DNA of 64,000 bases from Candidatus Adlerbacteria bacterium (GCA_903878285.1 CAIRHB010000002.1:808-64807), one strand, 5' to 3'. Numbered from the stretch's first letter, positions 6,850 through 54,294 are shown. Notes: generated by a model from the sequence alone, not told the origin. Made by a program: numbers and translations.

Positions 6850-8181
6850 ATGGAAACACAAAAAAGTTTGAAGATCGAGTATGTAGCAGTGGATGTTCTT
6901 CGTGCGGCAGACTACAACCCGCGCAAGTGGGACAAAGAGGCGGCGCAACACCTCCGTGAGAGTATCACTCGTTTTGGCGTGGTAGACCCACTACTGGTGA
7001 ATAGTGCGCTTGAGCGAAAAAACATTGTCATCGGTGGACACTTCCGTCTATGCGTACTTAAAGAGATGGGCGTGACTGAAGTGCCCGTGGTGTATGTGTC
7101 TGTTCCTGATATAGAACGAGAAAAAGAACTCAACATACGTCTCAATCGAAACGTCGGCGAATTCGACTGGGATTTGCTCGCCACCTTCGACGAGGCATTT
7201 CTGTCAGATGTCGGATTCTCCAGCGAGGAGCTTGACGGCATATTTGCCCCCGATGAGCAGGAGGAAGTATTTGACCTTAAGAAAGAATTGGACAAGCTCA
7301 AAATTGATTCGATCGATATACAAAAGGGAGACATGTATCAGCTTGGACAGCATCGCCTCATGTGCGGCGATAGCACCATCGAGTCGGATATGTTGACACT
7401 TATGGGCGACGAGAGAGCAGACATGTGCTTCACGGATCCGCCGTACATACTCGACTACTTACACGGCAAGACACGCCATGGCGAGGCAACCACTGGATTC
7501 GGCGCAAAGAAGAACCGTCGGTATCTTGAGACAGAATCCCTGCCTAATGATTTCAGTGACCTGTGGATGGCAAATATCGCCAAGGTACAAAAGGCAGACT
7601 TTTCCATCATTATATTCGAGCACCCAAAGAATCTGCGCACCATCTGGAACGCAGTGGAGAAACATTGGAAATACCGCAACACTATTGTCTGGCATGTGCC
7701 CAATCGCGTACAGGGATTCTCCTCAAAGTACAAGTTCTTCAACAAGCACGATATAGCCCTCGTGGGTACTACTCCAGAGTTTGAGCTGCCAAACACTGCA
7801 CCAGAAGATGACGCGCTCTTTCAAACAGAGTACGAGAACGCGCTATTTGCCACGGCAGGCAAACCGCAGTGGGAGGGCTATGAGAAAGGCAAGAAGTATC
7901 AACCGACCGATTTTATCGAGCACGTGGCCGCAGACGAGAAATCATCGGGTCAAGGCATTATCTTTGGCACGAAACCCCTTGAGCTCCTGATACCATACAT
8001 AAAAGTGCTTACCAAACGCGGCAATCTCATTGTTGAACCGTTTGGCGGTAGCGGCTCTACCCTGATTGCCGCGCACAAAATGGATCGGCGGTGCTTCTTG
8101 ATGGAGAAATCTCCTGTGTATGCAGAGGTTATTAAGAATCGCTGGGAGACACTCACTGGGCAAAAAGCACATAAGATATGA
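6850..8181 (+). CDS. ParB-like nuclease domain fused to DNA N6/N4 methyltransferase (phage-type ParB-MTase), copy A
   Basis: The N-terminus has ParB motifs (YNPRK, IVIGGHFRL). The C-terminus has an FTDPPY catalytic motif and an FGGSGST AdoMet-binding motif. Confidence 0.85.
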   Translation: METQKSLKIEYVAVDVLRAADYNPRKWDKEAAQHLRESITRFGVVDPLLVNSALERKNIVIGGHFRLCVLKEMGVTEVPVVYVSVPDIEREKELNIRLNRNVGEFDWDLLATFDEAFLSDVGFSSEELDGIFAPDEQEEVFDLKKELDKLKIDSIDIQKGDMYQLGQHRLMCGDSTIESDMLTLMGDERADMCFTDPPYILDYLHGKTRHGEATTGFGAKKNRRYLETESLPNDFSDLWMANIAKVQKADFSIIIFEHPKNLRTIWNAVEKHWKYRNTIVWHVPNRVQGFSSKYKFFNKHDIALVGTTPEFELPNTAPEDDALFQTEYENALFATAGKPQWEGYEKGKKYQPTDFIEHVAADEKSSGQGIIFGTKPLELLIPYIKVLTKRGNLIVEPFGGSGSTLIAAHKMDRRCFLMEKSPVYAEVIKNRWETLTGQKAHKI

Positions 8182-8182
8182 C

Positions 8183-8563
8183 ATGGCAGCAACACCCAAT
8201 ACACCAACCATACTCGATGAGCAACAACGGGAACAAAAGACTCTGATTATAGAGACGCTCAAAGTAAAACCAGTAGTCCAGACCGCATGCATAAAAGCGG
8301 GCATTGTTCGAGCTACCTACTACCGATGGATGAAAACGGATCGTGCGTTTGCAAAAGATGTTTGTGGTGCAATTAAAGAAGGTAATGACTTGATTAACGA
8401 TATGGCAGAATCAAAATTGTTCGATGGGATTAAGGAGGGCAAGATGAGCGCGATACGGTACCGGCTGGATCACAAGCATCCAAAGTACAAAAAGAAGCTC
8501 GTGCAAAAACGAAAGCGCAAAGACCCGCCGCAGAAAAAGATGGTGATATTGATTAAAGAGTAA
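8183..8563 (+). CDS. Terminase small subunit-like HTH protein, copy A
   Basis: HTH followed by a W/K-rich tail (VRATYYRWMKTDRAF...). It is a paralogue of the gene that directly precedes terminase large in module B. I took the start at the ATG that abuts the MTase stop. Confidence 0.55.
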   Translation: MAATPNTPTILDEQQREQKTLIIETLKVKPVVQTACIKAGIVRATYYRWMKTDRAFAKDVCGAIKEGNDLINDMAESKLFDGIKEGKMSAIRYRLDHKHPKYKKKLVQKRKRKDPPQKKMVILIKE

Positions 8564-9011: not shown

Positions 9012-9479
9012 CTAGAGATTGTTCCCTGAAGCGACACCGTACTGGGCTGTTATTAGCTTATGAAACTCGGAGAGAGTGCTGCATTTTGTGCTACTTACAT
9101 AGCACACACCCACACTGTCCCCAGCGTTATACATAGCATAGATGTCTGAAGTGTTTACATCCCAGACAGTTTCTTCATAGTTGTAACCCTCGTAGTTTGC
9201 TTTGTTTGGTACTTGTTGATACACATCTATGTAACATTTCTCTTTTTCAGGATTATAATAGTTTGCATAAAAGGAAATGGCAGATGGTTTTTCTATACTT
9301 TGAGGAAAGAACTTAGCCGCAGCGTCGGCGCATTTTTGTTGCAGGGCAAAATAGTTTACTTGTTCTTGTGTAACAGATGTTGCTACAACTAACTTAGAGA
9401 TTCTATATTGCTGATACAAAACAATACCAACAAGCAGGAAGGTAATTATCCCCAAAAACAGAACAGATTTATTTTTCAT
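9012..9479 (-). CDS. Membrane-anchored hypothetical protein (N-terminal TM helix, Cys-containing extracytoplasmic domain)
   Basis: The start was reset to the MKNKSVLFLGIITFLLVGIVLY signal-anchor. It is immediately upstream of the HEPN-like gene and co-oriented with it. Confidence 0.45.
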   Translation of the reverse strand: MKNKSVLFLGIITFLLVGIVLYQQYRISKLVVATSVTQEQVNYFALQQKCADAAAKFFPQSIEKPSAISFYANYYNPEKEKCYIDVYQQVPNKANYEGYNYEETVWDVNTSDIYAMYNAGDSVGVCYVSSTKCSTLSEFHKLITAQYGVASGNNL

Positions 9480-9858: not shown

Positions 9859-11193
9859 TTGTGGTGTATGACCAACACAACACAAGTGCCAGCGGGGACA
9901 CTGGCTCGGGCGGCGCAAGTCCCAATACCAGTAAAGTATTGTTTGTATGCTCGCAAGAGCACAGAGTCCGAGGAGCGGCAGGTGCTCTCCATCGACTCGC
10001 AAATCAAGGAGATGCTTCAGCTCGCCGAGCGTGAAGGACTCCAGATTGTCGCTATGAAACGCGAGTCGCACTCGGCGAAGGAGACGGGTCAGCGTCCCAT
10101 ATTCAACGAGATTGTCGAGGAGATAAAGGGCGGCAAATACAACGGCATCCTCACTTGGGCACCCGACCGCATCAGCCGCAATGCAGGCGACCTCGGCAAG
10201 ATAGTAGATCTCATGGACGCGGGTGGATTACAAGAGATACGCACCTACAGCCAAAGCTTCCGCAATAATCCGAACGAGAAGTTTTTACTGATGATACTCG
10301 GGAGCCAAGCAAAGCTCGAGAACGACAATCGCGGTATTAATGTAAAACGTGGTCTGCGCACCAGAGTGGAGATGGGGCTGTGGCCGACGACCCCACCGAC
10401 TGGCTACCTGACACAGAAGAATATGGAGAAAAAATGTCAGGTTATCATCGACCCAGAGCGTAGCCCCATCGTGCGTAAGATGTTCGAGAAAATGGCGTAT
10501 GAACATTGGTCGGGGCGCAAGATACATCACTGGCTCAAGTTCGAGCTGAACTTCAAGACGGTGGGTAACAAAAATCTCGCGCTCAGCAACATCTTCCGAA
10601 CGCTACAGAACCCCTTCTACTACGGAGTATTCGAGTACCCGAAAGCATCTGGAAACTGGTATACCGGCAAGCATGAACCACTGATAACCAAGGAGCTGTT
10701 CGAGCTTGTACAGACACAACTCAAGCGGGACAACATCACCCGACAAAGCCACGAGTTCGCTTTCACCAAACTCATTGTCTGCGGCAAGTGTGGATCATGC
10801 GTGAGTGCCGAGGAAAAGTACAAACCGCGCAAGGATGGGACCACGATACGATACGTCTACTACGGATGTGGCAGATCAAAAGACCATCACTGCAAAGGTA
10901 ACAAATACTTGCGCGAGGAAGATCTGGTCGAGCAACTGCTTGGCGTGCTTGATCAAATCGACCTCAACGTGCTCGGTGTACAGATAAAGTTCAAAGATGA
11001 GCTCAAGCGGCACAACAAATTCCAGCGCACGGTACTGGGACTATCAAACCCATCTGCCGAGCACGAAGATATCGACCTCAAGACCTATGCCAAATACATT
11101 CTCAAGGAGGGTACCATGGAGGAAAAGCGTGAACTGATGGGGTGCTTCAAGACAAAGCTCAAGATCACAGAGGGTGTTGTAACTATCGGCTAG
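9859..11193 (+). CDS. Large serine recombinase (phage-integrase type), copy A
   Basis: N-terminal resolvase catalytic domain (YARKST..SIDSQ), recombinase domain, and a Cys-rich zinc ribbon (CGKCGS...C..C). Length 444 aa. Confidence 0.9.
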   Translation: MWCMTNTTQVPAGTLARAAQVPIPVKYCLYARKSTESEERQVLSIDSQIKEMLQLAEREGLQIVAMKRESHSAKETGQRPIFNEIVEEIKGGKYNGILTWAPDRISRNAGDLGKIVDLMDAGGLQEIRTYSQSFRNNPNEKFLLMILGSQAKLENDNRGINVKRGLRTRVEMGLWPTTPPTGYLTQKNMEKKCQVIIDPERSPIVRKMFEKMAYEHWSGRKIHHWLKFELNFKTVGNKNLALSNIFRTLQNPFYYGVFEYPKASGNWYTGKHEPLITKELFELVQTQLKRDNITRQSHEFAFTKLIVCGKCGSCVSAEEKYKPRKDGTTIRYVYYGCGRSKDHHCKGNKYLREEDLVEQLLGVLDQIDLNVLGVQIKFKDELKRHNKFQRTVLGLSNPSAEHEDIDLKTYAKYILKEGTMEEKRELMGCFKTKLKITEGVVTIG

Positions 11194-11204: not shown

Positions 11205-11897
11205 CTAAACCAATCCTAACTTCTCAAATGGATAATGTTTCTCGTCTGGCGTCGACATTACCTCAATCGTCGATTTACCAGATCTTTTCAGACGAAGCAC
11301 CCGCCGTTTTGGATGCCTCAGACACTCTTGCGCGAGATCAAAAGTTGCAACAAGATCAACGGTCGGATAGATTTGCGCCATTGAGTACATCTCTTTTGCA
11401 GGATCGGATTTGCCAATTATTATTATCGGAGCATGAGTTGCCAGATTTTTCTCAGCGAGCGCTTTCTGCAGTTCTGCATATGGCGGCACCAAAATCGGCC
11501 TATGCACGTGGCATAAAATAGTCGTTTGATCGTCATATGATTTCTTGCGAGCAAGCTTAGTATTCATCAGAAAGTCGATCAGATTGGTTTCAGAAGTATG
11601 TTCGTCGAATGTTACAACTTCGACATCTTGAACCGCAAAATCGTTGTCTCGAATCTTCTTCTCGTAGCAGCCGGTCCGCACATCAGGGCTTCCTTCATCG
11701 TCGCTGACGAGCTGCATCCAGAATTCTCTGTTGAGAGTTTTCATGATGCCCATAAGTGAAATAGCTACAATATAGCATTCAGCCGCTTTTCGGTAGATTT
11801 CGCTGCCGGGTACTATTTTGCGTTGTCGCTCCAACTCTCTGAAGTGATGGATGACGTTTAATGGCGGGAACCAAAGGTTGTCAGCGAGAAATATCAT
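11205..11897 (-). CDS. Hypothetical protein (island cargo)
   Basis: 230-aa low-GC ORF convergent with the recombinase stop. No recognisable motif. Confidence 0.4.
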   Translation of the reverse strand: MIFLADNLWFPPLNVIHHFRELERQRKIVPGSEIYRKAAECYIVAISLMGIMKTLNREFWMQLVSDDEGSPDVRTGCYEKKIRDNDFAVQDVEVVTFDEHTSETNLIDFLMNTKLARKKSYDDQTTILCHVHRPILVPPYAELQKALAEKNLATHAPIIIIGKSDPAKEMYSMAQIYPTVDLVATFDLAQECLRHPKRRVLRLKRSGKSTIEVMSTPDEKHYPFEKLGLV

Positions 11898-12036
11898 ACA
11901 CGCTAATAATAAGCTCTCGGGTCTGTCCGATACAAAAGTCTGCGGGCGGGCCGTCTTGAGCTAGAACCGTGGTCGGTCAAGCCCTGTTTGACGGAATAGC
12001 TACATTTTACACTATTGAAACGACGCATCTCGAGCG

Positions 12037-12252
12037 CTATGCCTTTCGCCACTGATCAGGTTTTCCTTTGTTTGTATGACGAACGCGCTCTACATCCGGG
12101 CGCACGTCCGGAAACATCTTTTGTGCTTTTGCAATTGCCTTCGCTTGCGTAGGCGCAGTCGCAGAAGCTCGTTTTGAATGCTCCTGGCGAACGGCATAAT
12201 CGCCCTCGGGCCGCTTCTCTATGTAGATATCTGGTCCTTTCTTCTTACCCAT
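12037..12252 (-). CDS. DUF2188-like small protein
   Basis: 71 aa. The pattern (YAVRQEHSKRASATAPTQAKAIAKAQ) resembles the DUF2188 / YjzC-like family. Recalled from memory. Confidence 0.5.
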   Translation of the reverse strand: MGKKKGPDIYIEKRPEGDYAVRQEHSKRASATAPTQAKAIAKAQKMFPDVRPDVERVRHTNKGKPDQWRKA

Positions 12253-12320
12253 ACCCTAAGTGTATCAAATAGTGACAAAAGTGACACGGGAATGAGAATG
12301 GGTTGTGTCACTTTGTCGAT

Positions 12321-13319
12321 TCAACTTAAAAATTCCTCTGGAACCGGATTTGTCATAAAGAATGTGTACGGCGCCCATTTCGCACGGGCAGGCTTGATCT
12401 CTTGGAACTGTTTATTACCAACCCGTTGGTATGAACTAAGAATCTTTTTCGACTTAAGATTCCCATATATATAATTATTTGAGAATCCCATGGTGTTGGA
12501 ATTGATGTAATCGATTTTCTTCTCCGATGTGATCTCAAATTTTGATTTCGAGAGCGGGAGGTCCCGCAACAATAGACCTATTCTGGGGCTGAGAGGAAGA
12601 AATATTGTGCCGTTTCCTAATCCGGCGTTATATATTGGAGGAATATAGGTCGGACGGTAAATCGATATCGGATTATCTGACGTAACGAACACTTTCCAAG
12701 TCGGGTTGATTACGAGGTGCCAGTGCTTACTCCTGTAATACCCGTCTGCAAGCTCCATCGAGAGCTCAATACCCTGAGCCAGAAAGAATGCTCGCGCCTC
12801 TTTAAATTCGACAGAATATTCTTTATTTAGGACGAATTGTCGATGCTCTTCCAACTCTTTTGCGTTCAAGATTATGCCAGCTTCTTCGCTTTGTTTCTTA
12901 AAAACACTTTTATCCATGGCATTCATGGCCATGAATTCTTTCATACCCTCGGCGCGAATAGCTTCCATTGCTTTCACAAAGCCCGGCGTTCTAACTGCAA
13001 GCAATGCAATGAACACGGCGATCATCTGCTTTTGATCATCGTCGCAATTTATTTCCTCGGTACGAATAATATCTTTAATCGCTGCGCCGACCTTTCCCTC
13101 AATCATGGTGTGAAATTCATCAATATCTCTACTCGTCGTTGAATCCTTTTTGTTCGTGAAAGTATAAAAATCTTTCTCGGCAGCAATATCTTTAATGGCT
13201 GCTGGCACAATACTTTCTTGTGAATACTGAAAGATGTGGGGAGTGTAAGGGTTTTTATCAGACGAGAATGCATCCAAGTAGAATTGTGGTACGTAGTGGT
13301 CCTTTGGTTTTCCTGCCAT
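12321..13319 (-). CDS. DUF4238-like protein
   Basis: The N-terminal HYVPQFYLDAF matches, as I recall it, the signature start of the DUF4238 family. 332 aa, low GC. Confidence 0.55.
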   Translation of the reverse strand: MAGKPKDHYVPQFYLDAFSSDKNPYTPHIFQYSQESIVPAAIKDIAAEKDFYTFTNKKDSTTSRDIDEFHTMIEGKVGAAIKDIIRTEEINCDDDQKQMIAVFIALLAVRTPGFVKAMEAIRAEGMKEFMAMNAMDKSVFKKQSEEAGIILNAKELEEHRQFVLNKEYSVEFKEARAFFLAQGIELSMELADGYYRSKHWHLVINPTWKVFVTSDNPISIYRPTYIPPIYNAGLGNGTIFLPLSPRIGLLLRDLPLSKSKFEITSEKKIDYINSNTMGFSNNYIYGNLKSKKILSSYQRVGNKQFQEIKPARAKWAPYTFFMTNPVPEEFLS

Positions 13320-13454
13320 AGCGCTTTTTATAATACCCCTATGTGCAAGAATGGCGAGTTGACTTAAGAACGTAGGTTAGATTCTGAGACTCGCCGACCG
13401 CCCCTGTACTGCCTTTTGACGCTATTTATTAAATAGCCCAGCGATCGGCAAGTC

Positions 13455-13640
13455 TCAAAACCCATTAATCGCCTCAACTCTCTGTCTATTTAGATACTTA
13501 ATAATGTCGTTTTTATCGAAACGGACACTACCCCCAACCTTAATGAATGGGAGCTGTCGCCCTTGCTGCAGGCGTCGCACTGATGTCGGAGATACCTTTA
13601 AAAACTCAGCGACCTCGTTTATGGTCAATAGTTCTAGCAT
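13455..13640 (-). CDS. Excisionase/AlpA-family helix-turn-helix DNA-binding protein
   Basis: 61 aa with a TINEVAEFLKVSPTSVRRL...GGSVRF pattern typical of the excisionase-family DNA-binding domain. Confidence 0.7.
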   Translation of the reverse strand: MLELLTINEVAEFLKVSPTSVRRLQQGRQLPFIKVGGSVRFDKNDIIKYLNRQRVEAINGF

Positions 13641-13651
13641 AAAAGATAGGG

Positions 13652-14260
13652 TTATTTAGCGTACACGCACAGCCCATCAATAATGGGCTTTATTACGGCG
13701 TAAATCTGCCACACAAAAAGACTAACGAGCAATCCATATGTCACGATGACAAGCCATGAATGCTTATTGCCGTTAATCTCCTTGAAAACGCCGACCATCC
13801 CTTTTTGTCTCCATTCTTCTTTTGCACGCTTATCACCGAACAGCTCTCGAAAAAGCGAATAGCCGAATTGCGAAACAACATAAATCAGCCCGAATCCAAC
13901 TAATGTCATAAGCGAAGCGTCGGCGGTTTGATGCTCTTTGGGGAGCGAGCAGTAAGCTTGGCCAATGAAAATTATGAGGCTCAAACCAACGCTTGCTGCC
14001 AGAAGAGAGCGAAACACGACGTACCCTGCAACGAACCACAAGATGCTAAAGAATACACCATAGACGATAATGAGTACGACCGGACCAACGGTTGCAAAAT
14101 ACGAAGAGTGAATGAGGAACCATGAAGTCAGTGACACACCACCTAAGAAAATAAGAAACGACTTCAGATCCTTCCTTTGTACCCCAAGTTTATCGAGCAA
14201 TTTGTGAAAGGTGTTCATAAATGAAATTGAAAGAGTAAGCTTGAGATTTTTATTTTCCAA
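13652..14260 (-). CDS. Hypothetical 4-TM membrane protein
   Basis: 202 aa with four hydrophobic helices. It is tightly packed, overlapping the upstream gene by 11 nt. Confidence 0.5.
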   Translation of the reverse strand: MENKNLKLTLSISFMNTFHKLLDKLGVQRKDLKSFLIFLGGVSLTSWFLIHSSYFATVGPVVLIIVYGVFFSILWFVAGYVVFRSLLAASVGLSLIIFIGQAYCSLPKEHQTADASLMTLVGFGLIYVVSQFGYSLFRELFGDKRAKEEWRQKGMVGVFKEINGNKHSWLVIVTYGLLVSLFVWQIYAVIKPIIDGLCVYAK

Positions 14261-15428
14261 TTTTAATTTGCGGCAGCAATTCCGCAGTAAGATCTGCCGC
14301 CTCTTCTATCGATATTTTGTCCCCGAGCGTAACAATCTCCACGCTAATGCGGAAAACGATTTTTGCGGTCCCGAGCGCGGCGAGTATTTTGTCCTTGTTT
14401 GTCATATACTCTGCATTTTGCTCATTCACACCCTTTTCGCGCCCCTTGATATTAGTGGCGAAGCCAAACTTACCGGGCAAAAACTCTTCCGCGTTTATAT
14501 ACCGTCCATCGGGGGCATTGATGCCGTCATGAAAGATATGCGATTGATAGCCCTCGGGCAGCTCAAGCGATAGCCGTATGTCGCGTACCAGTATTTTTCT
14601 GCTTGATAGATTTTTGATAATGACCGGGATCATGAGGGTAAAACTTTCGGCCAGTCCTTCACGCGTCGTCACGATTTTACTAAAGCCTACTTTCTCAATC
14701 TCAATCTTTGGTAGGTCTGAACGCACTTCCATAGCGCCACGGGTGGAAACGATTTTCTTCCCACCAGGCAGTGTTACTGTGGTTTCAATATGCGGTACGA
14801 TATCCGTTGGCTCCGATCTCCCATCTTCAAGTCTTAGGGAGCCATTTTCTTTATCAACGATGACATGAGCTTTATCACCGCTGCCGTCGCGCTTGCCGAT
14901 GAGTAGGTGTTCATCGTGTCCTTGCGAGCGGGACTCGATAAAAATATTTTCATTTTTGTACCTGCTTTTTACCGTCTTGCCGCGCGCCGGTGTTTCCGCT
15001 TGTGAGCGCATAAATGACTCAACGCGATCCCTGTGGCGCAATTCTAGTTCTTGCGACGCGCGGTTGTATAAGCTACCGGGCACGTTTGAATTATCATTTC
15101 GACGCACAATTTCTCGCAGCTCCTCGTCGGTTCTTTTTGTAAGATCGCTGTAATCTTGAACTTCAAACTGGGCAAAATACTTTGCCACTCGATCTGGGGT
15201 CGAAGAAAAACCTTCGTGATAAATATCCTGCCCCTCGTTTTCGATTAAAAGGAAACCTTCCGCTTTCAGATGATGCAAAAAACCCTTTATGTGTTCTATC
15301 TCCTCATTTTGGAGGTTGGGTCGTATAGGCGTAACCAAAAGTTCAGCGATGCGGTGAACCTTCATAAAGCCGCTTCGTGCTCTAAAAAACTCCATTATTT
15401 GCTTCTTATTCGGGTACACCAGTTCCAT
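14250..15428 (-). CDS. Hypothetical protein, 392 aa (possible N-terminal winged-helix)
   Basis: Long low-GC ORF. The N-terminal 70 aa look wHTH-like. The remainder is unassigned. Confidence 0.5.
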   Translation of the reverse strand: MELVYPNKKQIMEFFRARSGFMKVHRIAELLVTPIRPNLQNEEIEHIKGFLHHLKAEGFLLIENEGQDIYHEGFSSTPDRVAKYFAQFEVQDYSDLTKRTDEELREIVRRNDNSNVPGSLYNRASQELELRHRDRVESFMRSQAETPARGKTVKSRYKNENIFIESRSQGHDEHLLIGKRDGSGDKAHVIVDKENGSLRLEDGRSEPTDIVPHIETTVTLPGGKKIVSTRGAMEVRSDLPKIEIEKVGFSKIVTTREGLAESFTLMIPVIIKNLSSRKILVRDIRLSLELPEGYQSHIFHDGINAPDGRYINAEEFLPGKFGFATNIKGREKGVNEQNAEYMTNKDKILAALGTAKIVFRISVEIVTLGDKISIEEAADLTAELLPQIKIGK

Positions 15429-15455
15429 ACCCGCAATCCTAGCAAAAAAGCAGCT

Positions 15456-16379
15456 TTATTTCCTCTTTCGCTTTTTACTGTCTCGTAACCTCTTTATATG
15501 CTCCTGACGCGTGCGTCTTTCCTCCCACTTCTTCTTTTTCTCCTCTTCTCGCGCTTTCATCTCCTCGGGTGGCACCACGCGCATGTAGTCCATGATCTTA
15601 TAGCCCTTGAGGACTTTGAACGGATCTCGGTGCTGATACCACTTTCCTCCGCCCTTGGTCTCCAACAACTTTTTTGGAGGCAGGAATCCTTTGTTGTCCT
15701 CGACCAAGAATAGTTCGGTGTGCACACCTTTCCCATAGTGGCTCACGGTTCGCGCCTTGAGTATGCCCATACGCATCCATTTGCCGACCGTCGGCCCTTT
15801 AAGATTGAAATTAGAGTCGAGGTCATACCTGCTGTACCAAATGTTTTTATCCTTCGCTAGTATGGCGGGAATCTCGCCCTCATCAATCGCTTTCTGACAT
15901 ACAAGACACTTGACACCGTATTTGTCGTACCAATTGTCGCCGCTCTGCGTATGCTGGCCGCATATCGCGCACGTATAACTGCCATCAAGATGAAAACCTT
16001 TGGGATTTGCCTTGAGTTTCTCGTCCCGCGCCTTATCTTTCTCTTTGATTTCCTCCATGAGCTTTCCCATTCGTTCCATACCGCTCTTCATCTCATAGTA
16101 CTTTTGACCCTCTTCTTCGGTAAGGCAGAAGCGGTCGCGGTCCGCAGCAAAGTTTTGATCAATACCCTCATCTTTCTTATGCGTCCATTCATACTCCTCG
16201 GTGTTCGCATAGCCGCACTTAACGCACGTCGTAGTCGTAACCGATCGCTTGTCGTCGTCCTCTATCTTCTTCTCAACCGGGCTGCGGCAATTCGGGCATA
16301 GCTCTGGCTTTGGCCGCCACTCTTCGCCGTTCGAGAAGAATGCGCGGCGCGGCATACAGTTGTTCGTGCAGTCGTACAT
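15456..16379 (-). CDS. Hypothetical zinc-ribbon protein (four CxxC pairs, lysine-rich C-terminus)
   Basis: CPNCR, CVKCG, CAICG and CLVCQ motifs. A KKKKWEERR...KKRKRK tail. Confidence 0.5.
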   Translation of the reverse strand: MYDCTNNCMPRRAFFSNGEEWRPKPELCPNCRSPVEKKIEDDDKRSVTTTTCVKCGYANTEEYEWTHKKDEGIDQNFAADRDRFCLTEEEGQKYYEMKSGMERMGKLMEEIKEKDKARDEKLKANPKGFHLDGSYTCAICGQHTQSGDNWYDKYGVKCLVCQKAIDEGEIPAILAKDKNIWYSRYDLDSNFNLKGPTVGKWMRMGILKARTVSHYGKGVHTELFLVEDNKGFLPPKKLLETKGGGKWYQHRDPFKVLKGYKIMDYMRVVPPEEMKAREEEKKKKWEERRTRQEHIKRLRDSKKRKRK

Positions 16380-16834
16380 AACAAAAGGCGCTCGGGCATA
16401 TCTTTGCCGGATTCATACCAGAGCGTTTTGAATGTCGGCTTTACTAAGTTTCGGCACGCAAGACAGCGGATACCCTCGGGGGCCTGCGCGGATTCGATCA
16501 GGTCGTCGAGTTTCTGGTCCCGATCCATCCACTCGCGGATTGTATTTTCTTTCTTGAGATATCGCTCACCAGTCTCCATTCGCAGATACCATTCTTTAGC
16601 ACCATCGATGGCTCGTTTCGCTTCCTCTTTACTCAAACCTTTTGGCTTTTTGGGCAAATCATCTACTCCTTTCGCTTTAAAAGATTGTTCTGTCCTACGA
16701 CACATCTCCACCGTGCCTCGATCATACAGGTCGGAGTAATAGAGGTGCGGCTTGAGATGCGGCTCGCTCATACCATAAATAATATTCAGAAAATCAGTCT
16801 TCGTAAATATGTCAGAAACGGCTGTATACTTCAT
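16262..16834 (-). CDS. Hypothetical Cys-containing protein; 3' end overlaps the next ORF out of frame (possible frameshift/pseudogene junction)
   Basis: The first ~150 aa look protein-like and include CLACRN. The last ~35 aa are Arg-rich and lie in the 118-nt overlap with the 15456..16379 ORF. Confidence 0.35.
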   Translation of the reverse strand: MKYTAVSDIFTKTDFLNIIYGMSEPHLKPHLYYSDLYDRGTVEMCRRTEQSFKAKGVDDLPKKPKGLSKEEAKRAIDGAKEWYLRMETGERYLKKENTIREWMDRDQKLDDLIESAQAPEGIRCLACRNLVKPTFKTLWYESGKDMPERLLLCTTARTTVCRAAHSSRTAKSGGQSQSYARIAAARLRRR

Positions 16835-16836
16835 GT

Positions 16837-17187
16837 ATGGCAGAGATAGAACGCATATACATAAAAGACCTGACCCTCCATTCGAGGGAGTCTCGCCCGA
16901 CTACCAAATTCTCAAAGGTTGCCGAAAAAGGCCGTATGTATCGGCCTATCGGCATTAGCCAGACCAAGGAAGTCGCCCCGACAGGTTTTTTACACCTCTT
17001 CGATTTCGAATTACCACAAGACCTAAAAGAGAGGGTTGATCGGGGTGAAGTCGAAATCATGATGCCCGAGGACGGAGTGAATATATACCTTGGGGATGAT
17101 GCCCAAGAAAAGCTCACCCAATTGAACGCCCAAGCTCGTCGCGAACTTATCCACCGCAGCCGCGGCAAGGATTGGCACGCGGAGTAG
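16837..17187 (+). CDS. Hypothetical protein
   Basis: 116-aa ORF divergent from the minus-strand operon. Start codons of the two are 2 nt apart. Confidence 0.35.
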   Translation: MAEIERIYIKDLTLHSRESRPTTKFSKVAEKGRMYRPIGISQTKEVAPTGFLHLFDFELPQDLKERVDRGEVEIMMPEDGVNIYLGDDAQEKLTQLNAQARRELIHRSRGKDWHAE

Positions 17188-17349
17188 AACGGCGTACAAT
17201 GAACGCACAACTGAATATTACTGGTGGTGCCTCGCAACTTGTTGCCACGCCCACTTCGTAGAGAAAGCCTTTGAGAATCACCCGTTGATTCCCTGAGACT
17301 TCCCCGCGAAGTGGGCTTTCTCGTTATTTATCAAGTAACGAAGAAAATT

Positions 17350-18633
17350 ATGGACAAGGAAAATATTGCGATTGTGTACGTACCCATTACTAACCTCAAG
17401 CCAGCCACCTACAATCCACGCAAGATCTCCAAGGAGGCAATGGAGCAGCTGAAAGAGAGTATCAAGCGATACTCAATGGTTGATCCCATAATCGCGAATT
17501 CTGCGCCCAAGCGTAAGGACATTGTTATTGGCGGACACATGCGTCTGCGTGCCGCAAAAGCACTCGGGCATAAAATCATTCCTGTGGTGTATGTAGATAT
17601 TCCTAACCTCAAGAAAGAGCAGGAATTGAACCTGCGTCTTAATCGCTCAACGGGAGAATGGGATTTCGAGAAGTTGAAGTTTTTTGACTCTGACTTTCTC
17701 ACCGACATCGGCTTTAACGATTCTGACTTGGCCGACATATGGAAAGAAAATCTCGAAGCTGAAAATGACGATTTCGACACCGATGCCGAACTCGCCAAAA
17801 TCAAGAAGCCAAAAACAAAACTCGGTGACTTGATTGCCCTCGGTGACCACCGCCTCATCTGCGGTGATTCAACCAATCCCGCAGTACTCAAGAAACTGCT
17901 TGGCAAGGATCGCGCCTCGATGATATATAGCGACCCTGTCTACAATATCCAGATTGATTACAACGGCGGTATCGGGGGTAAGCAGAATTACGGTGGCAAT
18001 GTAAACGATCACCGCACCTACGACGAGTACAAGGAATTCCTCAAGAAAAGCCTCGTAGCCGCTCTTGCAGTATCAAAGCCCGATACGCACGTTTTCTATT
18101 GGAGCGATGAGACATACATCGGCCTTATACAAGAGCTGTACCGCGACCTCGGCATTCAGAATAAGCGCGTATGTCTGTGGCTAAAAAATTCGCAAAACCC
18201 TGTACCATCCGTCGCGTTCAACAAATGCTACGAGCCATGTACATATGGCGTACGCGGAAAGCCATATATCTCTAAACACATTCTCAATCTCAATGAGGTG
18301 CTGAACAAGGAACTCACAACTGGCAATAATCTCATTCAAGAAACCTTGTATCATCTCGACCTGTGGATGGTTAAACGACTCTCGGGCAAGGACTACGAAC
18401 ACGCAACATCGAAGCCACCAAAGCTCCATGAAAAAGCGATACGCCGTTGCACCAAACCTAACGATATTATCCTCGACAGCTTTTCTGGCAGTGCTTCAAC
18501 AATGATTGCTGCCGATCAACTCAAACGCCGCGCCTACTTGGTCGAACTGGAACCGCGCTTCTGCGACCTGGCTATTAAGCGATACGAGAAGCTCACGGGA
18601 AAGAAAGCTCGCGTAATCTCCAACGGCTTATGA
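17350..18633 (+). CDS. ParB-like nuclease domain fused to DNA methyltransferase, copy B
   Basis: About 45% identity to copy A by eye (YNPRK, IVIGGHMRL; SDPVY variant of DPPY; FSGSAST). An alternative upstream start lies at 17311. Confidence 0.85.
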   Translation: MDKENIAIVYVPITNLKPATYNPRKISKEAMEQLKESIKRYSMVDPIIANSAPKRKDIVIGGHMRLRAAKALGHKIIPVVYVDIPNLKKEQELNLRLNRSTGEWDFEKLKFFDSDFLTDIGFNDSDLADIWKENLEAENDDFDTDAELAKIKKPKTKLGDLIALGDHRLICGDSTNPAVLKKLLGKDRASMIYSDPVYNIQIDYNGGIGGKQNYGGNVNDHRTYDEYKEFLKKSLVAALAVSKPDTHVFYWSDETYIGLIQELYRDLGIQNKRVCLWLKNSQNPVPSVAFNKCYEPCTYGVRGKPYISKHILNLNEVLNKELTTGNNLIQETLYHLDLWMVKRLSGKDYEHATSKPPKLHEKAIRRCTKPNDIILDSFSGSASTMIAADQLKRRAYLVELEPRFCDLAIKRYEKLTGKKARVISNGL

Positions 18634-19040
18634 AGAAAAATAAAGTAAAAGATGCGTTCCTTATGGAACTGCGAAAAATTCCGATTGTCCAAGTTGCCTG
18701 TGAAAAGGTCGGCGTGTCCCGCAATAGTGTCTACCGTTGGCGCACGGAGGATGAGGAATTTCGTAAAGAAATGGAAACGGCGCTCACGGAGGGCGAAGCG
18801 TTAGTAAATGATATGAGCGAAAGCCAATTACTCAGTCTTATTCGTGAAAAAAATTGGTCGGCAATTAGTTTCTGGCTACGACATCGCAACCCAAAGTTTA
18901 AGGAACGCGTAGAGATTACCGCGAAAATCGAGAAATCAAACGAGCCACTCACTCCCCAACAAGAGGCCGATATCAAGTTGGCGATGCAACTTGGACTACC
19001 GCAACAAACATATGGAGAAACTAAAAGCACTGACCAGTGA
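18630..19040 (+). CDS. Terminase small subunit-like HTH protein, copy B
   Basis: HTH (VGVSRNSVYRWRTEDEEF). It overlaps the start of the terminase large gene. Confidence 0.6.
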   Translation: MKKNKVKDAFLMELRKIPIVQVACEKVGVSRNSVYRWRTEDEEFRKEMETALTEGEALVNDMSESQLLSLIREKNWSAISFWLRHRNPKFKERVEITAKIEKSNEPLTPQQEADIKLAMQLGLPQQTYGETKSTDQ

Positions 19041-20475
19041 TGAAGAGCGAATCATCGAGCAGATGATTCGTGACAGGAACTTCCGCATAGCAATGGTGAC
19101 CAAAAGCCATTTCTGGTTCTTTCACTATTACTTTGGCAAGGACTATGTGAAATACCGCACCGCCGACTTCCATAAGGAAATATTCCAACTCACTGAAAAT
19201 CCCGATCTACAGAACATCGTCATTACCGCTTTCCGAGGTAGTGGCAAAAGTACGATAGTAACCCTCTCGTATGTAATTTGGTCGATCCTCGGCGAACAGC
19301 AGAAAAAGTACCCCATTATCCTCGGGCAGACCCAACTCAAGGCACAGGCGCACCTACAGGCTATCAAGCGTGAACTGGAGCATAACGAGGCTCTGAGAGC
19401 CGACCTAGGGCCGTTTCGCGAGGAGAATAACCAGTGGGGTGCGCTTTCCCTCATCCTCCCTCAATACGGAGCCAAGATATCTACGGGGTCGGTGGAGCAG
19501 AGCATACGAGGTATGCGTCACTATCAGCACCGCCCCGACCTCATCATCTGTGACGACATCGAGGATCCCGATTCGGTGCGTACTCAAGAGAACCGCGACA
19601 AGCTGTTTGACTGGCTCACGGGCGATGTACTTCCTGCGGGAGACAAAGGTACGCGCATGATGTTCATTGGCACACCACTTCACGAGGACTCACTGCTTCG
19701 TCGCCTCGAAAAGCTGTTTACGAATGGCGATGCAAAAAGTGCGTTTCGGCGATATCCAATTGTTGATGAAAACGGCACACCACTGTGGATTGGTAAATTT
19801 GCAACTCAAAACGATATTGATGCAGAGAAAGCGAAGTGCCTCAACATCGTGGCATGGCAACGCGAGTACATGCTGAAGATAGTGCAGAGCGATACGCAGA
19901 TCGTAAAGCGTGAATGGATAAAAACGTACACAGAAGTACCGAGCGGACCAGATTGTAAATTCAGGTATGCCGCTACAGCCATTGATCCTGCACGCTCACA
20001 AAAGGCAACGGCGGATTGCACAGCAATGGTATCGGGCAAGATATACGGCACGAAAGCTGATAGAAAAATCTATATCATGCCGAATCCCATAAACGCTCGA
20101 CTGACCAGTGAGCAAACTATCCAGAGTGCCGTAAATATTTCACTCGCCCTCGGGAATGGAGCAGCTACAAAGGTATATGTTGAGGAAGTGGGGCTTCAGG
20201 GGTATCTCACTGACTTTCTAAAAGCGCGTGGCATACCCGCTATTCCGTACCCGATTCGTGGGCAAACCAAAGAGGGTCGATTACAGGCGGTTGCCGCGCT
20301 TATCGAACTAGGTACGATACTCTTTCCCGAGAAAGGTGCAGAGCAACTGGTAGAGCAGATCCTAGGATTTGGCACCGAGAAGCATGACGATTTAGTCGAT
20401 GCGTTTACGATTCTCGTTCTACAACTTTTAGAAAGCACAAAACTCTATCCACAAATACAGTGGATCCGCCTCTAA
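18991..20475 (+). CDS. Phage terminase large subunit
   Basis: Walker A (FRGSGKST), Walker B (LIICDD), and a C-terminal RNase-H-like nuclease region (AIDPA...KHDDLVDA). Confidence 0.85.
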   Translation: MDYRNKHMEKLKALTSDEERIIEQMIRDRNFRIAMVTKSHFWFFHYYFGKDYVKYRTADFHKEIFQLTENPDLQNIVITAFRGSGKSTIVTLSYVIWSILGEQQKKYPIILGQTQLKAQAHLQAIKRELEHNEALRADLGPFREENNQWGALSLILPQYGAKISTGSVEQSIRGMRHYQHRPDLIICDDIEDPDSVRTQENRDKLFDWLTGDVLPAGDKGTRMMFIGTPLHEDSLLRRLEKLFTNGDAKSAFRRYPIVDENGTPLWIGKFATQNDIDAEKAKCLNIVAWQREYMLKIVQSDTQIVKREWIKTYTEVPSGPDCKFRYAATAIDPARSQKATADCTAMVSGKIYGTKADRKIYIMPNPINARLTSEQTIQSAVNISLALGNGAATKVYVEEVGLQGYLTDFLKARGIPAIPYPIRGQTKEGRLQAVAALIELGTILFPEKGAEQLVEQILGFGTEKHDDLVDAFTILVLQLLESTKLYPQIQWIRL

Positions 20476-20554
20476 GAGGCTAAATACCATGCGACGAAAC
20501 GGCTAGTCTGCATAGCTATGCAGGGCTGGTGGTTCTGGCATCAATGGTGGTCGC

Positions 20555-21880
20555 ATGAATATACAAGCACCAACAGCCCTTATGGGCAAACCACAACTAT
20601 TACCAGCAGTAAAAATGAAGTACGTTCTTTATGCTCGAAAAAGCACCGAGACAGAAGAACGGCAGATATTGTCGATTGATTCGCAGGTAAAAGAGATGCT
20701 CCAAATTGCCGAGCGAGAGAATATAGAGGTTATAGATATTCGTCGCGAGTCGCATTCGGCAAAGGATTCGGGGCAGAGGCCAGTCTTTAAAGAAATCCTC
20801 GAAGATCTACGGCGACAACGATTTAATGGCATTCTGACATGGGCACCAGATCGTTTGAGTCGAAACGCAGGTGACCTCGGAAGCCTCGTAGATTTAATGG
20901 ATCAAAAGTTACTGCTCGAAATTCGGACTTACGGTCAACAGTTCAGAAACTCACCAAACGAAAAGTTCTTGCTGATGATTCTCTGTAGCCAAGCAAAGCT
21001 CGAAAACGACAACAAAAGTATTAACGTGAAGCGAGGGCTTCGGACGAGGTGCGAAATGGGACTGAGGCCAGGCTCACCACCGATCGGATATCTGAACGAG
21101 CGGCACATGGATAGAAAGTGCGAAGCGATAGTAGATCCCGAACGAGGCCCTGTAATTAAGAAAATCTTTGAGAAAGTAGCATACGAAAAGTGGAGTGGTC
21201 GAAAGATATATAACTGGCTGAAGTTCGACCTGAATTTCAAGAGTGCTACTGGCAAGAAAGGCCTCGCTCTCGGCAATATCTACCTCATTCTTCAAAATCC
21301 TTTTTACTACGGTGTTTTTGAGTATCCTGCAAAGAGCGGGAACTTTTATACAGGCAAACACACACCGCTCATTACGAAAGAGCTTTTTGATCAAGTGCAG
21401 TCGCAGGTGAAAAGTAACGTGCTTCGGGTTGAGAATAAGGAGTTTGCCTTCACTAAACTCATGACATGCGGAATGTGCGGTTCGGGCATATCTGCCGACG
21501 AGAAGTTCAAGAAGCAAAAGAATGGCGGCGTACACAGACATGTCTACTACGGCTGTACCAAGGCGAGAGACAAGAACTGCAAGGGCGGATACATAAATGA
21601 GGTGGAGCTGATCGAGCAACTCGAAGTACTCATGGAGGAAATGAACTTAGACGAGATTGGCATCAAAGAAAAGATTAAGAATGAAGTGACGAGATTCAAA
21701 AAGTTTCAGAAAGTGCTCTTGGGTAAAAAAGAAGAAGTAAACGTAGTCGATATTGATATCAGAAACTACATGCGTTTTATCCTCCGTGAGGGCGAAGATT
21801 CAGAGAAAAGAGAATTGCTCGGCTGCCTTACATCGAGAGTTTCGCTGAAGGAAAAGAAACTGACGCTAGCAAATGTTTAG
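20555..21880 (+). CDS. Large serine recombinase, copy B
   Basis: About 65-70% identity to copy A by eye, with the same YARKST / SIDSQ catalytic region and zinc ribbon. Confidence 0.9.
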   Translation: MNIQAPTALMGKPQLLPAVKMKYVLYARKSTETEERQILSIDSQVKEMLQIAERENIEVIDIRRESHSAKDSGQRPVFKEILEDLRRQRFNGILTWAPDRLSRNAGDLGSLVDLMDQKLLLEIRTYGQQFRNSPNEKFLLMILCSQAKLENDNKSINVKRGLRTRCEMGLRPGSPPIGYLNERHMDRKCEAIVDPERGPVIKKIFEKVAYEKWSGRKIYNWLKFDLNFKSATGKKGLALGNIYLILQNPFYYGVFEYPAKSGNFYTGKHTPLITKELFDQVQSQVKSNVLRVENKEFAFTKLMTCGMCGSGISADEKFKKQKNGGVHRHVYYGCTKARDKNCKGGYINEVELIEQLEVLMEEMNLDEIGIKEKIKNEVTRFKKFQKVLLGKKEEVNVVDIDIRNYMRFILREGEDSEKRELLGCLTSRVSLKEKKLTLANV

Positions 21881-25880: not shown

Positions 25881-26126
25881 TTATTCGGTGCTCGTTTGCT
25901 TTAAAAAATTTTCAAATTCACTGCGGTCTATCCGAAACTCCTTACCAATTTTGTGTGCTTTAAGTCGTTTCGCCTTGATGTAGCGGTAAATGGTCATGAC
26001 GTTCAGACTCAACTTCTCGGCTAGATCGTGCGCCGTGTAGAACTCTTTTTCGTCTTTCTCCATACTTTTATGATACTTTACTTTTGTTGACATTACAACA
26101 CTCGAAGGAATACAATGTGGATGCAA
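25881..26126 (-). CDS. Excisionase-family HTH DNA-binding protein (possible R-M controller)
   Basis: The MTIYRYIKAKRLKAHKIGKEFRI motif matches the excisionase-family DNA-binding domain. The true start is probably an internal Met. It abuts the mod start. Confidence 0.6.
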   Translation of the reverse strand: MHPHCIPSSVVMSTKVKYHKSMEKDEKEFYTAHDLAEKLSLNVMTIYRYIKAKRLKAHKIGKEFRIDRSEFENFLKQTSTE

Positions 26127-26127
26127 T

Positions 26128-29353: not shown

Positions 29354-29443
29354 TGGCGGAGACGGAGGGATTCGAACCCTCGAGGGCGGTAAAGCCCTGC
29401 CTCGTTAGCAGTGAGGTACTTTCGACCACTCAGCCACGTCTCC
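29354..29443 (-). tRNA. tRNA-Ser (anticodon GCU)
   Basis: I folded it by hand. Acceptor stem is GGAGACG/CGTCTCC, T-arm is GAGGG-TTCGAAT-CCCTC, and there is a long variable arm. The anticodon loop is CTGCTAA and CCA is encoded. Confidence 0.9.
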
Positions 29444-49295: not shown

Positions 49296-50030
49296 CTATC
49301 TTTTTGTACGCCCGGAGGGATTCGAACCCCCAACCAATCGCGTATAAGGCGACTGCTCTACCATTGAGCTACGGGCGTGTATTTCGCGCAGATGCTTAAG
49401 CGCCATTGTAATGTACTCCCAAACGCCGATATTTTCAAAGAATACGTTGCATGTCCCATGTCCGTATCCGTTCTTATACGTAATAGCACTCAATGTCGAC
49501 TCCTTTATATACGGTTTTCTAAAGGATGCCTGTGGAAGCCCGGTTTCTTTTGACCAGAAATCCGTCTCCATTTTTTGATCCATATCTTTGTATAGATGCA
49601 ATCGTGCTCGTAATGATTCCCTTGGGATACCGACCGCACCGAGCCAGTGCAAAAACGCTCGTATCACTGCAGGGTCGGTATTCGCTATCGCGACAGTTCC
49701 ACGCGAGGATTTTGTCCCCTCGCCCCAGTACAAATACAAACCCGCGATAAACAACTCTCGTTGTGTTAGATGCCCAATGTCCGCGACCGCACAAGCATAC
49801 GCAGCAGCATATCGTGCATCTCTTTTCTTTCGCATTGTCTCGCGGAAGTGTTCTATGCGTTTTGGACTCACATCGCGCAGTAGTCGTATCTGCTCTGCAG
49901 AGAGTGGCATATCAGCAAGCCACACACTTAGCGTGCCTTTTGCCACACCGATACACTCCCGTATCTCGGAGTAACTCTTGCCTTGGGCACGCAACGTCCG
50001 CGCTTTTTCTCTATCAGCCACTCGAGTCAT
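49296..50030 (-). CDS. HTH plus LAGLIDADG-like homing-endonuclease-like protein; the 3' end of the ORF runs through the tRNA-Ile gene
   Basis: N-terminal resolvase-type HTH (GKSYSEIRECIGVAKGTLSVWL), then a LAGLIDADG-like core (FIAGLYLYWGEGTK...IANTDPAVIRAFLHWLGAVGI). The last ~25 codons overlap the tRNA on the same strand. Confidence 0.35.
   Translation of the reverse strand: MTRVADREKARTLRAQGKSYSEIRECIGVAKGTLSVWLADMPLSAEQIRLLRDVSPKRIEHFRETMRKKRDARYAAAYACAVADIGHLTQRELFIAGLYLYWGEGTKSSRGTVAIANTDPAVIRAFLHWLGAVGIPRESLRARLHLYKDMDQKMETDFWSKETGLPQASFRKPYIKESTLSAITYKNGYGHGTCNVFFENIGVWEYITMALKHLREIHARSSMVEQSPYTRLVGGSNPSGRTKR
49307..49378 (-). tRNA. tRNA-Ile (anticodon UAU)
   Basis: I folded it by hand. 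Acceptor stem is ACGCCCG/CGGGCGT, D-arm is GCTC-AATGGTA-GAGC, anticodon arm is GTCGC-CTTATAC-GCGAT, and T-arm is GGGGG-TTCGAAT-CCCTC. The discriminator is A and CCA is not encoded. Confidence 0.8.
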
Positions 50031-53908: not shown

Positions 53909-54294
53909 GGGGATGCCAGGCATAGACAATAGAAACAGTTGTGTGACGCGCGCAGTAGAAGCCCAGACCTTCTTAAAAAATCTGGAAACCCTAACTGCAA
54001 AATCGTCAGTTACATCGCCGTACTTTTCGGCGAACGAGTTCGCCTTCGCGTAATCCGCCAACGCCAACTCGCATCCGCTCTGCCACCGCCCGAGGGTAGA
54101 GGTCGGGTGTTATACATCGGGCTTGTGTGGCAGGAGACCGCTTCCCTCTTGTCGCAGACACCGACGAAGCCGCATGGCGTACGTATTTTGAATCTTCTCG
54201 AACGTACGCAGCAAGAAAATTAGAAGATTCTACACTACGTAGAAGCGCACTCGACTCTCTGTTGCACGCGGGTTCGACTCCCGCCATCTCCACC
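53909..54294 (+). ncRNA. ssrA: tmRNA (ssrA)
   Basis: The 5' GGGGATG pairs with the 3' CATCTCC, including a G3-U70 wobble. A T-arm GCGGG-TTCGACT-CCCGC precedes ACC. There is an internal ORF ending ...ANEFAFA-stop. It sits directly downstream of smpB. Confidence 0.7.

Follow-up and report, generated by a model that had tools for sequence, protein, structure and literature searches.

Whether a compact run of unannotated genes on mobile DNA represents a system in its own right, or is a part of the element that carries it, is the question raised by a block of open reading frames (ORFs) at positions 13455-16834 of a 64,000-nucleotide (nt) stretch of DNA from Candidatus Adlerbacteria bacterium (GCA_903878285.1, CAIRHB010000002.1:808-64807), referred to below, at its full length, as the window. 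In the original prediction, made from the sequence alone, the block was proposed to be an undescribed abortive-infection or defence system of five genes. Comparison with related loci indicates instead that the block is likely to form the left arm, with accessory and regulatory genes, of a small integrative element of phage origin, in which a gene that we call ZRP (our own name for the repaired product of ORF1 and ORF2) would encode a DNA-binding control protein or cofactor, disabled or shortened here, accompanied by a putative excision factor of the helix-turn-helix (HTH) family HTH_17, a membrane protein as edge gene and a protein of 392 amino acids (aa) as sporadic cargo. All five minus-strand ORFs are present where the prediction had placed them and with the spacing that it gave: ORF1 and ORF2 share a 118-nt out-of-frame overlap, followed down the block by a 27-nt gap, an 11-nt overlap and an 11-nt gap. 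The features of the block are as follows.

16262-16834, minus strand: ORF1, 190 aa, 5' part of the ZRP gene
15456-16379, minus strand: ORF2, 307 aa, 3' part of the ZRP gene
15456-16771, minus strand: ZRP gene, ~438-aa multi-zinc-ribbon and winged-helix protein, split by a 1-nt deletion
16379-16386, minus strand: frameshift site, the run cTTTTGTT followed by ATG, one T short compared with homologues (ERLL-F-MYDC)
14250-15428, minus strand: 392-aa modular protein, a sporadic accessory gene
13652-14260, minus strand: membrane-protein ORF as first called, 202 aa, TTG start
13652-14218, minus strand: membrane protein, most likely 188 aa, 4-5 hydrophobic helices, a recurrent edge gene
13455-13640, minus strand: excisionase-family HTH_17 protein, 61 aa, last gene of the arm
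13386-13454, minus strand: stable hairpin directly past the HTH_17 stop, 21-bp stem, predicted -41.7 kcal/mol as RNA

The evidence that carries this reading comes from the surroundings of ZRP in other genomes, for which 45 ZRP loci from one-per-species reference genomes were collected, metagenome contexts were added and tblastn searches were run with every protein of the island. Nearly all of the 45 loci are labelled Patescibacteria (Paceibacteria, Saccharibacteria, Parcubacteria, Gracilibacteria, Peribacteria and others), and the few with other taxon labels may be binning errors. A characteristic backbone lies near ZRP in 25 of these 45 reference loci, with a ParB-methylase gene in 22 and a close serine recombinase alone in 3, and at least 8 of the other 20 loci have less than 3.5 kb of upstream sequence. 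The ParB-methylase gene usually occupies the opposite strand, 0.3-6.5 kb upstream of ZRP, and is followed by a TerS-like gene and often by TerL and the recombinase gene, a divergent layout that is also found in L003-L007. On the other side of ZRP, all ORFs within 3.5 kb downstream were clustered for 49 non-redundant loci, and the largest common gene family occurs in 3 of the 49. ZRP is followed by the membrane gene in 3-4 loci (L011, L041 and L032 among them) and by the 392-aa gene in one (L029), an HTH_17 gene is near it in L027 and L042 only, and in L003-L006 the genes directly after it are core genes (NUDIX, cold-shock, Mur ligases). Since the backbone recurs near ZRP while the downstream genes vary, ZRP is a conserved left-arm backbone gene at the edge of the element and not cargo. 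The genes of the block thus lack the conserved co-occurrence expected of one abortive-infection or defence system, a lack that the original prediction had itself named as grounds for refutation, and PADLOC holds no model for the three large proteins, so that the system as proposed is not upheld.

Variants of the usual layout were also encountered. In L009 (5458-9760) and L034 (7050-11259), ZRP lies on the same strand as, and directly after, the ParB-methylase, TerS and a truncated TerL, and these two loci are rearranged variants of the divergent arrangement. In L010, L011 and L017, a distant serine recombinase (31-36% identical to those of the window) converges on ZRP from the opposite strand, 25-2000 nt after it, which suggests either minimal elements consisting of ZRP plus recombinase or a second recombinase lineage with the same partner. 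Recognisable defence genes are carried in the same arm of related elements, namely a set resembling the cyclic-oligonucleotide-based anti-phage signalling system (CBASS), with SMODS, bacterial HORMA and AAA, together with DUF6602 in L002 (121-4646), ThsB-TIR with 8xMP in L060/L061 (8787-10564) and a 1236-aa SNF2 helicase in L053 (18034-21098), and this suggests that the arm is a cargo hotspot.

In the window itself, the block lies between two recombinases, and its placement on mobile DNA between two serine-recombinase modules, already recognised in the original prediction, was borne out by Pfam and PHROGs. The block is directly divergent from one of the modules, here called module B, the other being module A.

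16772-17310, unstranded: divergent control region between ZRP and the ParB-methylase operon, with promoter-like sites and an inverted repeat
16837-17187, plus strand: 116-aa ORF in the control region, without homologues in related loci
17311-18633, plus strand: module B ParB-N/N6_N4 DNA methylase (Pfam; phrog_498, 5.8e-96)
18630-19040, plus strand: module B TerS-like HTH (TerS phrogs, ~2e-11)
18991-20475, plus strand: module B TerL (phrog_38, 7.2e-84)
20555-21880, plus strand: module B large serine recombinase (phrog_95 integrase, 9.4e-59)
6850-8181: module A ParB-N/N6_N4 methylase (Pfam, PHROGs)
8120-8563: module A TerS-like HTH (Pfam, PHROGs)
9859-11193: module A large serine recombinase (Pfam, PHROGs)

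The Resolvase, Recombinase and Zn_ribbon_recom domains are all present in both recombinases, which are ~57-60% alike. Among the related loci, L027 has the backbone closest to module B (ParB-methylase 74%, TerS 67%, TerL 63%, recombinase 71%), and its G+C profile delimits a stretch of ~12 kb as the element, which starts with the recombinase gene and finishes with HTH_17. In the control region, promoter-like sites face outward, at 16807-16779 on the minus strand, just upstream of ATG 16771, and at 17172-17200 on the plus strand. An inverted repeat, GCCCACTTCG ... CGAAGTGGGC (17249-17258 / 17307-17316), overlaps the annotated ParB-methylase start and could be an operator or a 5' RNA structure; the same repeat is found at the ParB-methylase start of L013 (9391-9403 / 9445-9457) and is absent from the other loci. 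Comparison of the ZRP/ParB-methylase intergenic regions of nine loci revealed no shared operator motif save this repeat common with L013, and the 116-aa ORF had no tblastn match in 52 loci.

The two ORFs at the head of the block had been suspected of being a single frameshifted gene, and this suspicion proved correct. That ORF1 and ORF2 belong to a single gene, broken by the loss of 1 nt, follows from the homologues, which are single proteins that read through the junction, and from the restoration of the ORF by one added T: the window's codons at the junction, GAG CGC CTT TTG TTA TGT, become ERLLFMYDC, within a 438-aa ORF from ATG 16771. The homologue alignment over the junction reads ...PERVLFMYDCPN..., the stretch ...P(E/D)RVLFMYDC(P)N... 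is uninterrupted in every aligned homologue, and invariant Cys pairs flank the junction in the family alignment (CLxC ... C-x3-C ... CPxC ... CxKC). As the homologues begin there, the true start of ZRP is probably the ATG at 16771 (M22 of ORF1). The identical frameshifted sequence, GAGCGCCTTTTGTTATGTACGAC, is present in the independent assemblies L065 (Logan ERR4193367) and L066 (ENA ERZ27229620), a third assembly (ERZ1426850) has an identical 307-aa gene call, and ZRP is frameshifted in every assembly seen; with the same sequence in independent assemblies, the deletion is a genuine feature of the population rather than an error of a single record. The block therefore comprises four genes and not the five originally counted, and its tight co-directional packing stands.

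Programmed -1 ribosomal frameshifting at CUUUUGUU, which would join the two ORFs and leave the gene functionally intact, is highly improbable. The downstream ORF is indeed in the -1 frame, and a slip after CUU would give ERLFVMYDC, equal in length to the ERVLFMYDC of the homologues; however, all 120 listed homologues are single ORFs, which makes a conserved programmed shift unlikely, the site departs from the canonical X XXY YYZ heptamer, and a simple 1-nt deletion accounts for the data. Residual function of the surviving 307-aa ORF is possible, since it retains the C-terminal module that is found elsewhere as a natural short form, encoded by genes of 217-241 aa.

A search with the conceptual fusion of ORF1 and ORF2 returned >228 protein clusters, almost all from Patescibacteria. 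The best 120 of these clusters measure 351-511 aa (most 410-460), share 52-75% identity with the query and cover 69-95% of it, usually 87-95%; homologues of 415-470 aa span 87-95% of the fusion at 55-75% identity. ZRP is an unannotated, abundant and highly conserved family. No curated family was found for it in Pfam, PHROGs, PADLOC or NCBIfam, and a sequence-profile search of the PDB gave chance-level matches only, as did the 190-aa ORF against PADLOC (GajA, E 0.026). The opinion that no family could be named was thus correct for the three large proteins of the block in all of these resources, and the domain guesses that accompanied it (zinc ribbons, a winged helix, a membrane protein and an excisionase HTH) were right. 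Zinc ribbons outside the Pfam DZR family are likely in ZRP, because the Cys pairs are invariant in the family alignment; the 307-aa ORF scores 22.0 bits against the double zinc ribbon family DZR (PF12773), under its gathering threshold of 27.3.

In the AlphaFold2 model of a 75%-identical homologue (P0001; predicted local distance difference test score, pLDDT, 86), residues 13-96 fold into a long hairpin of helices, 114-197 form a β-rich region of zinc-ribbon type, 221-257 a coiled coil and 282-358 another zinc ribbon with a small helix/β domain behind it, and the C-terminus is a long basic helix. ZRP is accordingly predicted to consist of the helical hairpin, zinc ribbons in tandem, the coiled coil, one more zinc ribbon joined to an HTH_17-like winged helix, and a basic tail. 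Tandem zinc-ribbon proteins (Rpb9/A12.2/TFIIS-type, and the N-terminal ribbon of NrdR) are the best, non-significant matches to the central part (Foldseek E 0.03-1, above any threshold, with TM-scores <0.1 relative to the ZRP query), and no solved equivalent was found for the whole architecture with its helical hairpin, coiled coil, winged helix and basic tail. One homologue is auto-annotated as 'RNA polymerase subunit M/TFIIS' by one source. The C-terminal domain gives weak recurrent HTH_17/MerR matches, with sub-threshold HTH_17 in 10 of 14 domains in Pfam, and its comparison with the neighbouring 61-aa HTH_17 protein by hhalign was negative, so that its resemblance to HTH_17 rests only on the sub-threshold Pfam matches.

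At the opposite end of the arm, the small HTH protein had been assigned to the excisionase type, and this assignment is confirmed by scores above cut-off for PF12728 (53.6 bits, cut-off 27, residues 4-54 on profile positions 1-51) and TIGR01764 (40.1 bits, cut-off 28.8), with PHROG excisionase families also matching. The MADS component MAD1 (NF047737) gives 41.3 bits, below its cut-off of 80, and the PADLOC mad1 model 29.5 bits; no other MADS component was found by PADLOC among the nine neighbouring proteins scanned. L027, the element with the greatest similarity, likewise ends in a 72%-identical copy, opposite the recombinase. In general, xis genes often lie at the element end opposite the integrase, and xis and int commonly flank the attachment site in the circular form. 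Because its gene closes the arm and lies at the far end of the element from the recombinase, the 61-aa protein is likely to be an excision (recombination directionality) factor or a regulator. It resembles Xis/AlpA-like factors (HTH_17, TIGR01764) in passing both thresholds and in its position at the end of the element, and differs from Xis-type factors in that its gene is absent from most related elements and its activity with a serine recombinase is only predicted. To our knowledge, serine-integrase directionality factors are diverse and not recognisable from sequence.

The hairpin directly past the HTH_17 stop probably terminates the transcription unit, and it lies at or close to the left edge of the inner element. 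The block had been described as ending with the excisionase HTH gene, which probably holds for the transcription unit; the statement fails in that co-directional ORFs continue beyond that gene, namely DUF4238, DUF2188 and a 230-aa ORF (11205-13319), parted from it by a 135-nt gap that contains the hairpin. A homologous hairpin follows HTH_17 in L027 (14641-14693), and the similarity between the window and L027 stops beyond it; the loop of the hairpin has opposite orientations relative to the gene in the two loci. Contigs of two independent assemblies (ERZ27229620, on both sides, and SRR8496331) break at 13404-13406, within the hairpin, which could reflect an assembly break induced by the structure or a structural polymorphism at the element boundary. 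Two further contigs begin at 13489 and 13491.

The membrane protein, for which four transmembrane segments had been predicted, shows 4-5 hydrophobic segments by hydropathy. Its gene most likely starts at ATG 14218, giving 188 aa, because the homologues have 186-189 aa and independent gene calls have 188 aa; with this start, a 31-nt gap and not an overlap would follow the 392-aa gene. The 36 homologues found are 50-79% identical and all 180-194 aa long, and none of Pfam, PHROGs, PADLOC and NCBIfam contains a family for the protein. The gene is found beside ZRP or its short form (L011/L078, L041, L058, L076), directly divergent from ParB-methylase in the slot usually held by ZRP (L062, L077), at the close of the ThsB-TIR/8xMP arm (L060/L061) or just past the recombinase (L072). 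Of 11 independent contexts built around the membrane gene, eight include the backbone or ZRP, and none includes the 392-aa or HTH_17 gene. The membrane gene is thus linked to the element family and adjoins ZRP in few loci. Its being a host gene used as integration target was also considered and was rejected on account of its narrow distribution (36 clusters) and its linkage to the elements.

A different pattern is displayed by the 392-aa protein, which consists of a winged helix (~1-90), a helical linker, a central beta module (~150-235) with the conserved motif FIESRSQG.D.HLLIGKRDG...KAHVIID, and a C-terminal beta-sandwich (~240-392), a fold that is neither enzymatic nor pore-forming. No family in Pfam, PHROGs, PADLOC or NCBIfam matches it, a PDB sequence-profile search with its family gave chance-level matches only, and tblastn of the protein against the phage collection found no match. 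The family is small, with 19 close homologues and 137 cluster representatives in an exhaustive profile search, and its three modules are shuffled among combinations; in a few relatives, TIR or PLD-like domains replace other modules, a weak hint at a conflict-system role for the family that is no evidence on the 392-aa protein itself. Homologues follow an XRE-type HTH near a distant recombinase in L054/55 and sit among metabolic genes without a recombinase in L056/57. The one genome that holds a 392-aa homologue together with ZRP and the membrane gene is JBAZUA010000002, where the 392-aa gene lies beyond the recombinase, in the same element and not in the same gene cluster. The neighbours of the homologues do not include other genes of the block, the membrane gene being missing from their contexts, and such a distribution is that of exchangeable cargo rather than a fixed system. 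Neighbours of ~340 aa beside some homologues were considered as paralogues, and the idea was rejected as tblastn did not detect them.

Taken together, these observations are best accommodated by an inner element of ~8.5 kb, spanning about 13386-21880, within a larger low-G+C island beside tRNA-Ser. We infer that the ZRP, 392-aa, membrane and HTH_17 genes would form one transcription unit ending at the 13386-13454 hairpin, an arm transcribed divergently from the ParB-methylase/TerS/TerL/recombinase operon, and that the inner element would have been inserted in the cargo of the outer island, between DUF4238 and the res gene. ZRP faces the backbone promoter, and this position together with its domains suggests that it binds element DNA and would either regulate the backbone operon or help in recombination or packaging. 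The HTH_17 protein would act as excision factor, its gene and that of the recombinase lying on either side of the attachment site in the circular form of the element; the membrane protein would be an edge gene typical of the family, and the 392-aa gene a sporadic, domain-shuffled accessory. Several findings weigh against this reading. Nothing convincing was detected in a search for attachment-type direct repeats across the island, and comparison of the junctions of the window and L027 yielded only the hairpin in common and no attachment sites, so that the boundaries given for the element rest on G+C content, synteny and the ends of homology; the right junction, moreover, would have to fall within the ~3 nt that separate the stop codons of the recombinase and res genes, which is unusually tight. 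Pfam and PHROGs scans recognised no primase, helicase or initiator domain among the genes of the inner element (where relatives have helicases, these belong to the variable cargo), and a shortened TerL or none at all is present in L008, L009, L012, L034, L003-6, L022 and L037; autonomy or a satellite lifestyle is therefore only a possibility. The HTH_17 gene is near ZRP in only 2 of 49 loci and, if it encodes an excision factor, serves only a subset of the elements, and the role of ZRP is deduced only from position and domains, with no solved or annotated relative found. An empty site, with DUF4238 and without the inner element, was also sought, and every contig found was identical to the window.

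Two other explanations have to be weighed against that of a maintained compact element. According to one of these, the locus would be a decayed ordinary prophage, the backbone being what was left after loss of the structural genes and the leftward genes being former early or lysogeny genes, with a repressor-like ZRP that is no longer functional. TerS and TerL are bona fide phage packaging genes, TerL is damaged or lost in several relatives, ZRP is frameshifted, and ZRP diverges from the 'late' operon as a lysogeny-control gene would. On the other hand, the compact layout, in which the recombinase comes right after TerL or TerS with no portal or capsid gene, is found in many unrelated genomes at 55-75% protein identity, and such recurrence argues for a maintained architecture rather than independent decay. 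Structural genes (capsid, portal, tail) were found neither among the ORFs of the island nor beside the element in the single IMG/VR contig that carries the module (L064), which looks chromosomal, and no locus with attached structural genes was encountered, that contig included. Because of this recurrence and the lack of attached structural genes among the loci found, a maintained compact element is favoured over a defective prophage remnant, which we regard as unlikely.

The other explanation retains the idea of defence, with the block, or at least its 392-aa, membrane and HTH genes, as undescribed abortive-infection or defence cargo made up of a nucleic-acid-binding sensor, a membrane effector and a small regulator. 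The packing up to the hairpin is tight and co-directional, the island holds a type III restriction-modification (R-M) system, a KAP NTPase, DUF4238 (weak PADLOC match) and DUF2188 (PADLOC PDC-S16), relatives carry ThsB-TIR/8xMP, CBASS-like genes or an SNF2 helicase in the same arm, which the membrane gene closes in the case of ThsB-TIR (L060/L061), and a few relatives of the 392-aa protein have TIR or PLD-like domains. Nevertheless, the 392-aa gene is beside ZRP in 1 of 49 loci and never in loci centred on the membrane gene, the membrane gene is equally missing from the contexts of the 392-aa homologues, PADLOC-DB v2 has no model matching the 392-aa, membrane or 307-aa proteins, the 392-aa fold is that of neither an enzyme nor a pore, and ZRP carries its frameshift in all assemblies seen. 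With 19 close homologues, the 392-aa family is also unlike a widespread system, which would still be compatible with a rare one. This explanation is improbable as stated and survives only in a weak form, in which the 392-aa protein and the membrane protein might each be cargo with a role in defence.

The maintained compact element belongs to a kind that is already known, that of recombinase-borne islands and satellites with packaging genes and defence cargo, such as phage-inducible chromosomal islands (PICI), PICI-like elements (PLE), virion-encapsidated integrative mobilizable elements (VEIME) and islands of the staphylococcal cassette chromosome (SCC) type. Like the phage satellites PICI, PLE and the marine VEIME, the inner element is small and integrative, encodes an integrase and no virion structural proteins, and belongs to a family whose variable cargo extends to defence genes. 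A large serine recombinase serves PLE and some VEIMEs, and a gene for the small terminase is present in several satellites (PMC9618062). The inner element shares with satellites the combination of an integrase and TerS-like/TerL genes with no capsid, portal or tail genes seen. It differs from them in its ParB-methylase, a full TerL in many copies, the lack of a recognised primase or initiator, and its Patescibacteria hosts, and it is known here from genes alone, with no helper phage, induction or encapsidation known. We know of no counterpart of ZRP in described satellites. The composite island in turn resembles the SCC-type islands of staphylococci (Ccr) in its large serine recombinases and in tandem or nested elements at one chromosomal site; SCC elements carry neither terminase genes nor a ParB-methylase and use rlmH as their integration site, whereas the outer island of the window abuts tRNA-Ser and the inner element, unlike SCC, seems to be inserted within the cargo of the outer one. 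Anti-phage cargo carried alongside is a further shared feature, reported for SCC-type composites in a published account (PMC11470126).

In the literature searched, there was no description of a ParB-methylase/TerS/optional TerL/ZRP backbone in Patescibacteria, nor of ZRP. A broader and rather speculative possibility is that ZRP marks an undescribed, widespread family of satellite-like Patescibacteria elements (ParB-methylase, TerS, optional TerL, large serine recombinase) that might shuttle defence cargo (type III R-M, ThsB-TIR, CBASS-like, DUF4238, 392-aa family) between lineages of the Candidate Phyla Radiation (CPR), with ZRP as a master switch that binds DNA, or as an excision cofactor, and with the membrane protein as an edge exclusion factor; the window would then hold a nested pair, one with its switch gene disabled. 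The mobile elements of CPR bacteria, their relations with phages and their defences are poorly known, and the organisms are largely uncultured. ZRP and the recurrent membrane protein may be of use as flags for recombinase-borne, terminase-carrying elements in these bacteria. If the elements are satellites or defence shuttles, they would provide a handle on gene flow in the phylum, and they would also add a new set of serine integrases with candidate cofactors, whose functions are only predicted. More generally, tight packing of unannotated genes in an island is insufficient to call a system, and it is the neighbourhood survey that separates backbone from cargo.

The island in which the block lies (~6.4-29.35 kb) has a G+C content of 0.41-0.51, compared with mostly 0.51-0.61 in the flanks, and ends at a tRNA-Ser gene (29354-29443). 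Past module B, it contains the type III R-M system and the KAP NTPase, and it seems to be composite, with module B and the block genes nested in the cargo of module A (DUF4238 ... type III res/mod ... KAP NTPase). DUF4238 (PADLOC 'DUF4238-Pers', weak, E 5e-5) and DUF2188 (PADLOC candidate PDC-S16, E 8e-7), at 12037-13319 on the minus strand, are better candidates for defence cargo than the block genes. Directly upstream of type III mod, a small minus-strand ORF (25884-26147) encodes an HTH (...FYTAHDLAEKLSLNVMTIYRYIKAKRLKAHKIGKEFRI...) with a weak match to the ZRP winged-helix profile (E 3.4e-4), and its product is probably an HTH_17-type controller of the R-M system. Outside the island, the window also carries a tRNA-Ile with the anticodon TAT, which is unusual in bacteria, and a transfer-messenger RNA (tmRNA) with the tag AKSSVTSPYFSANEFAFA, at 49306-49378 and 53909-54294, respectively.

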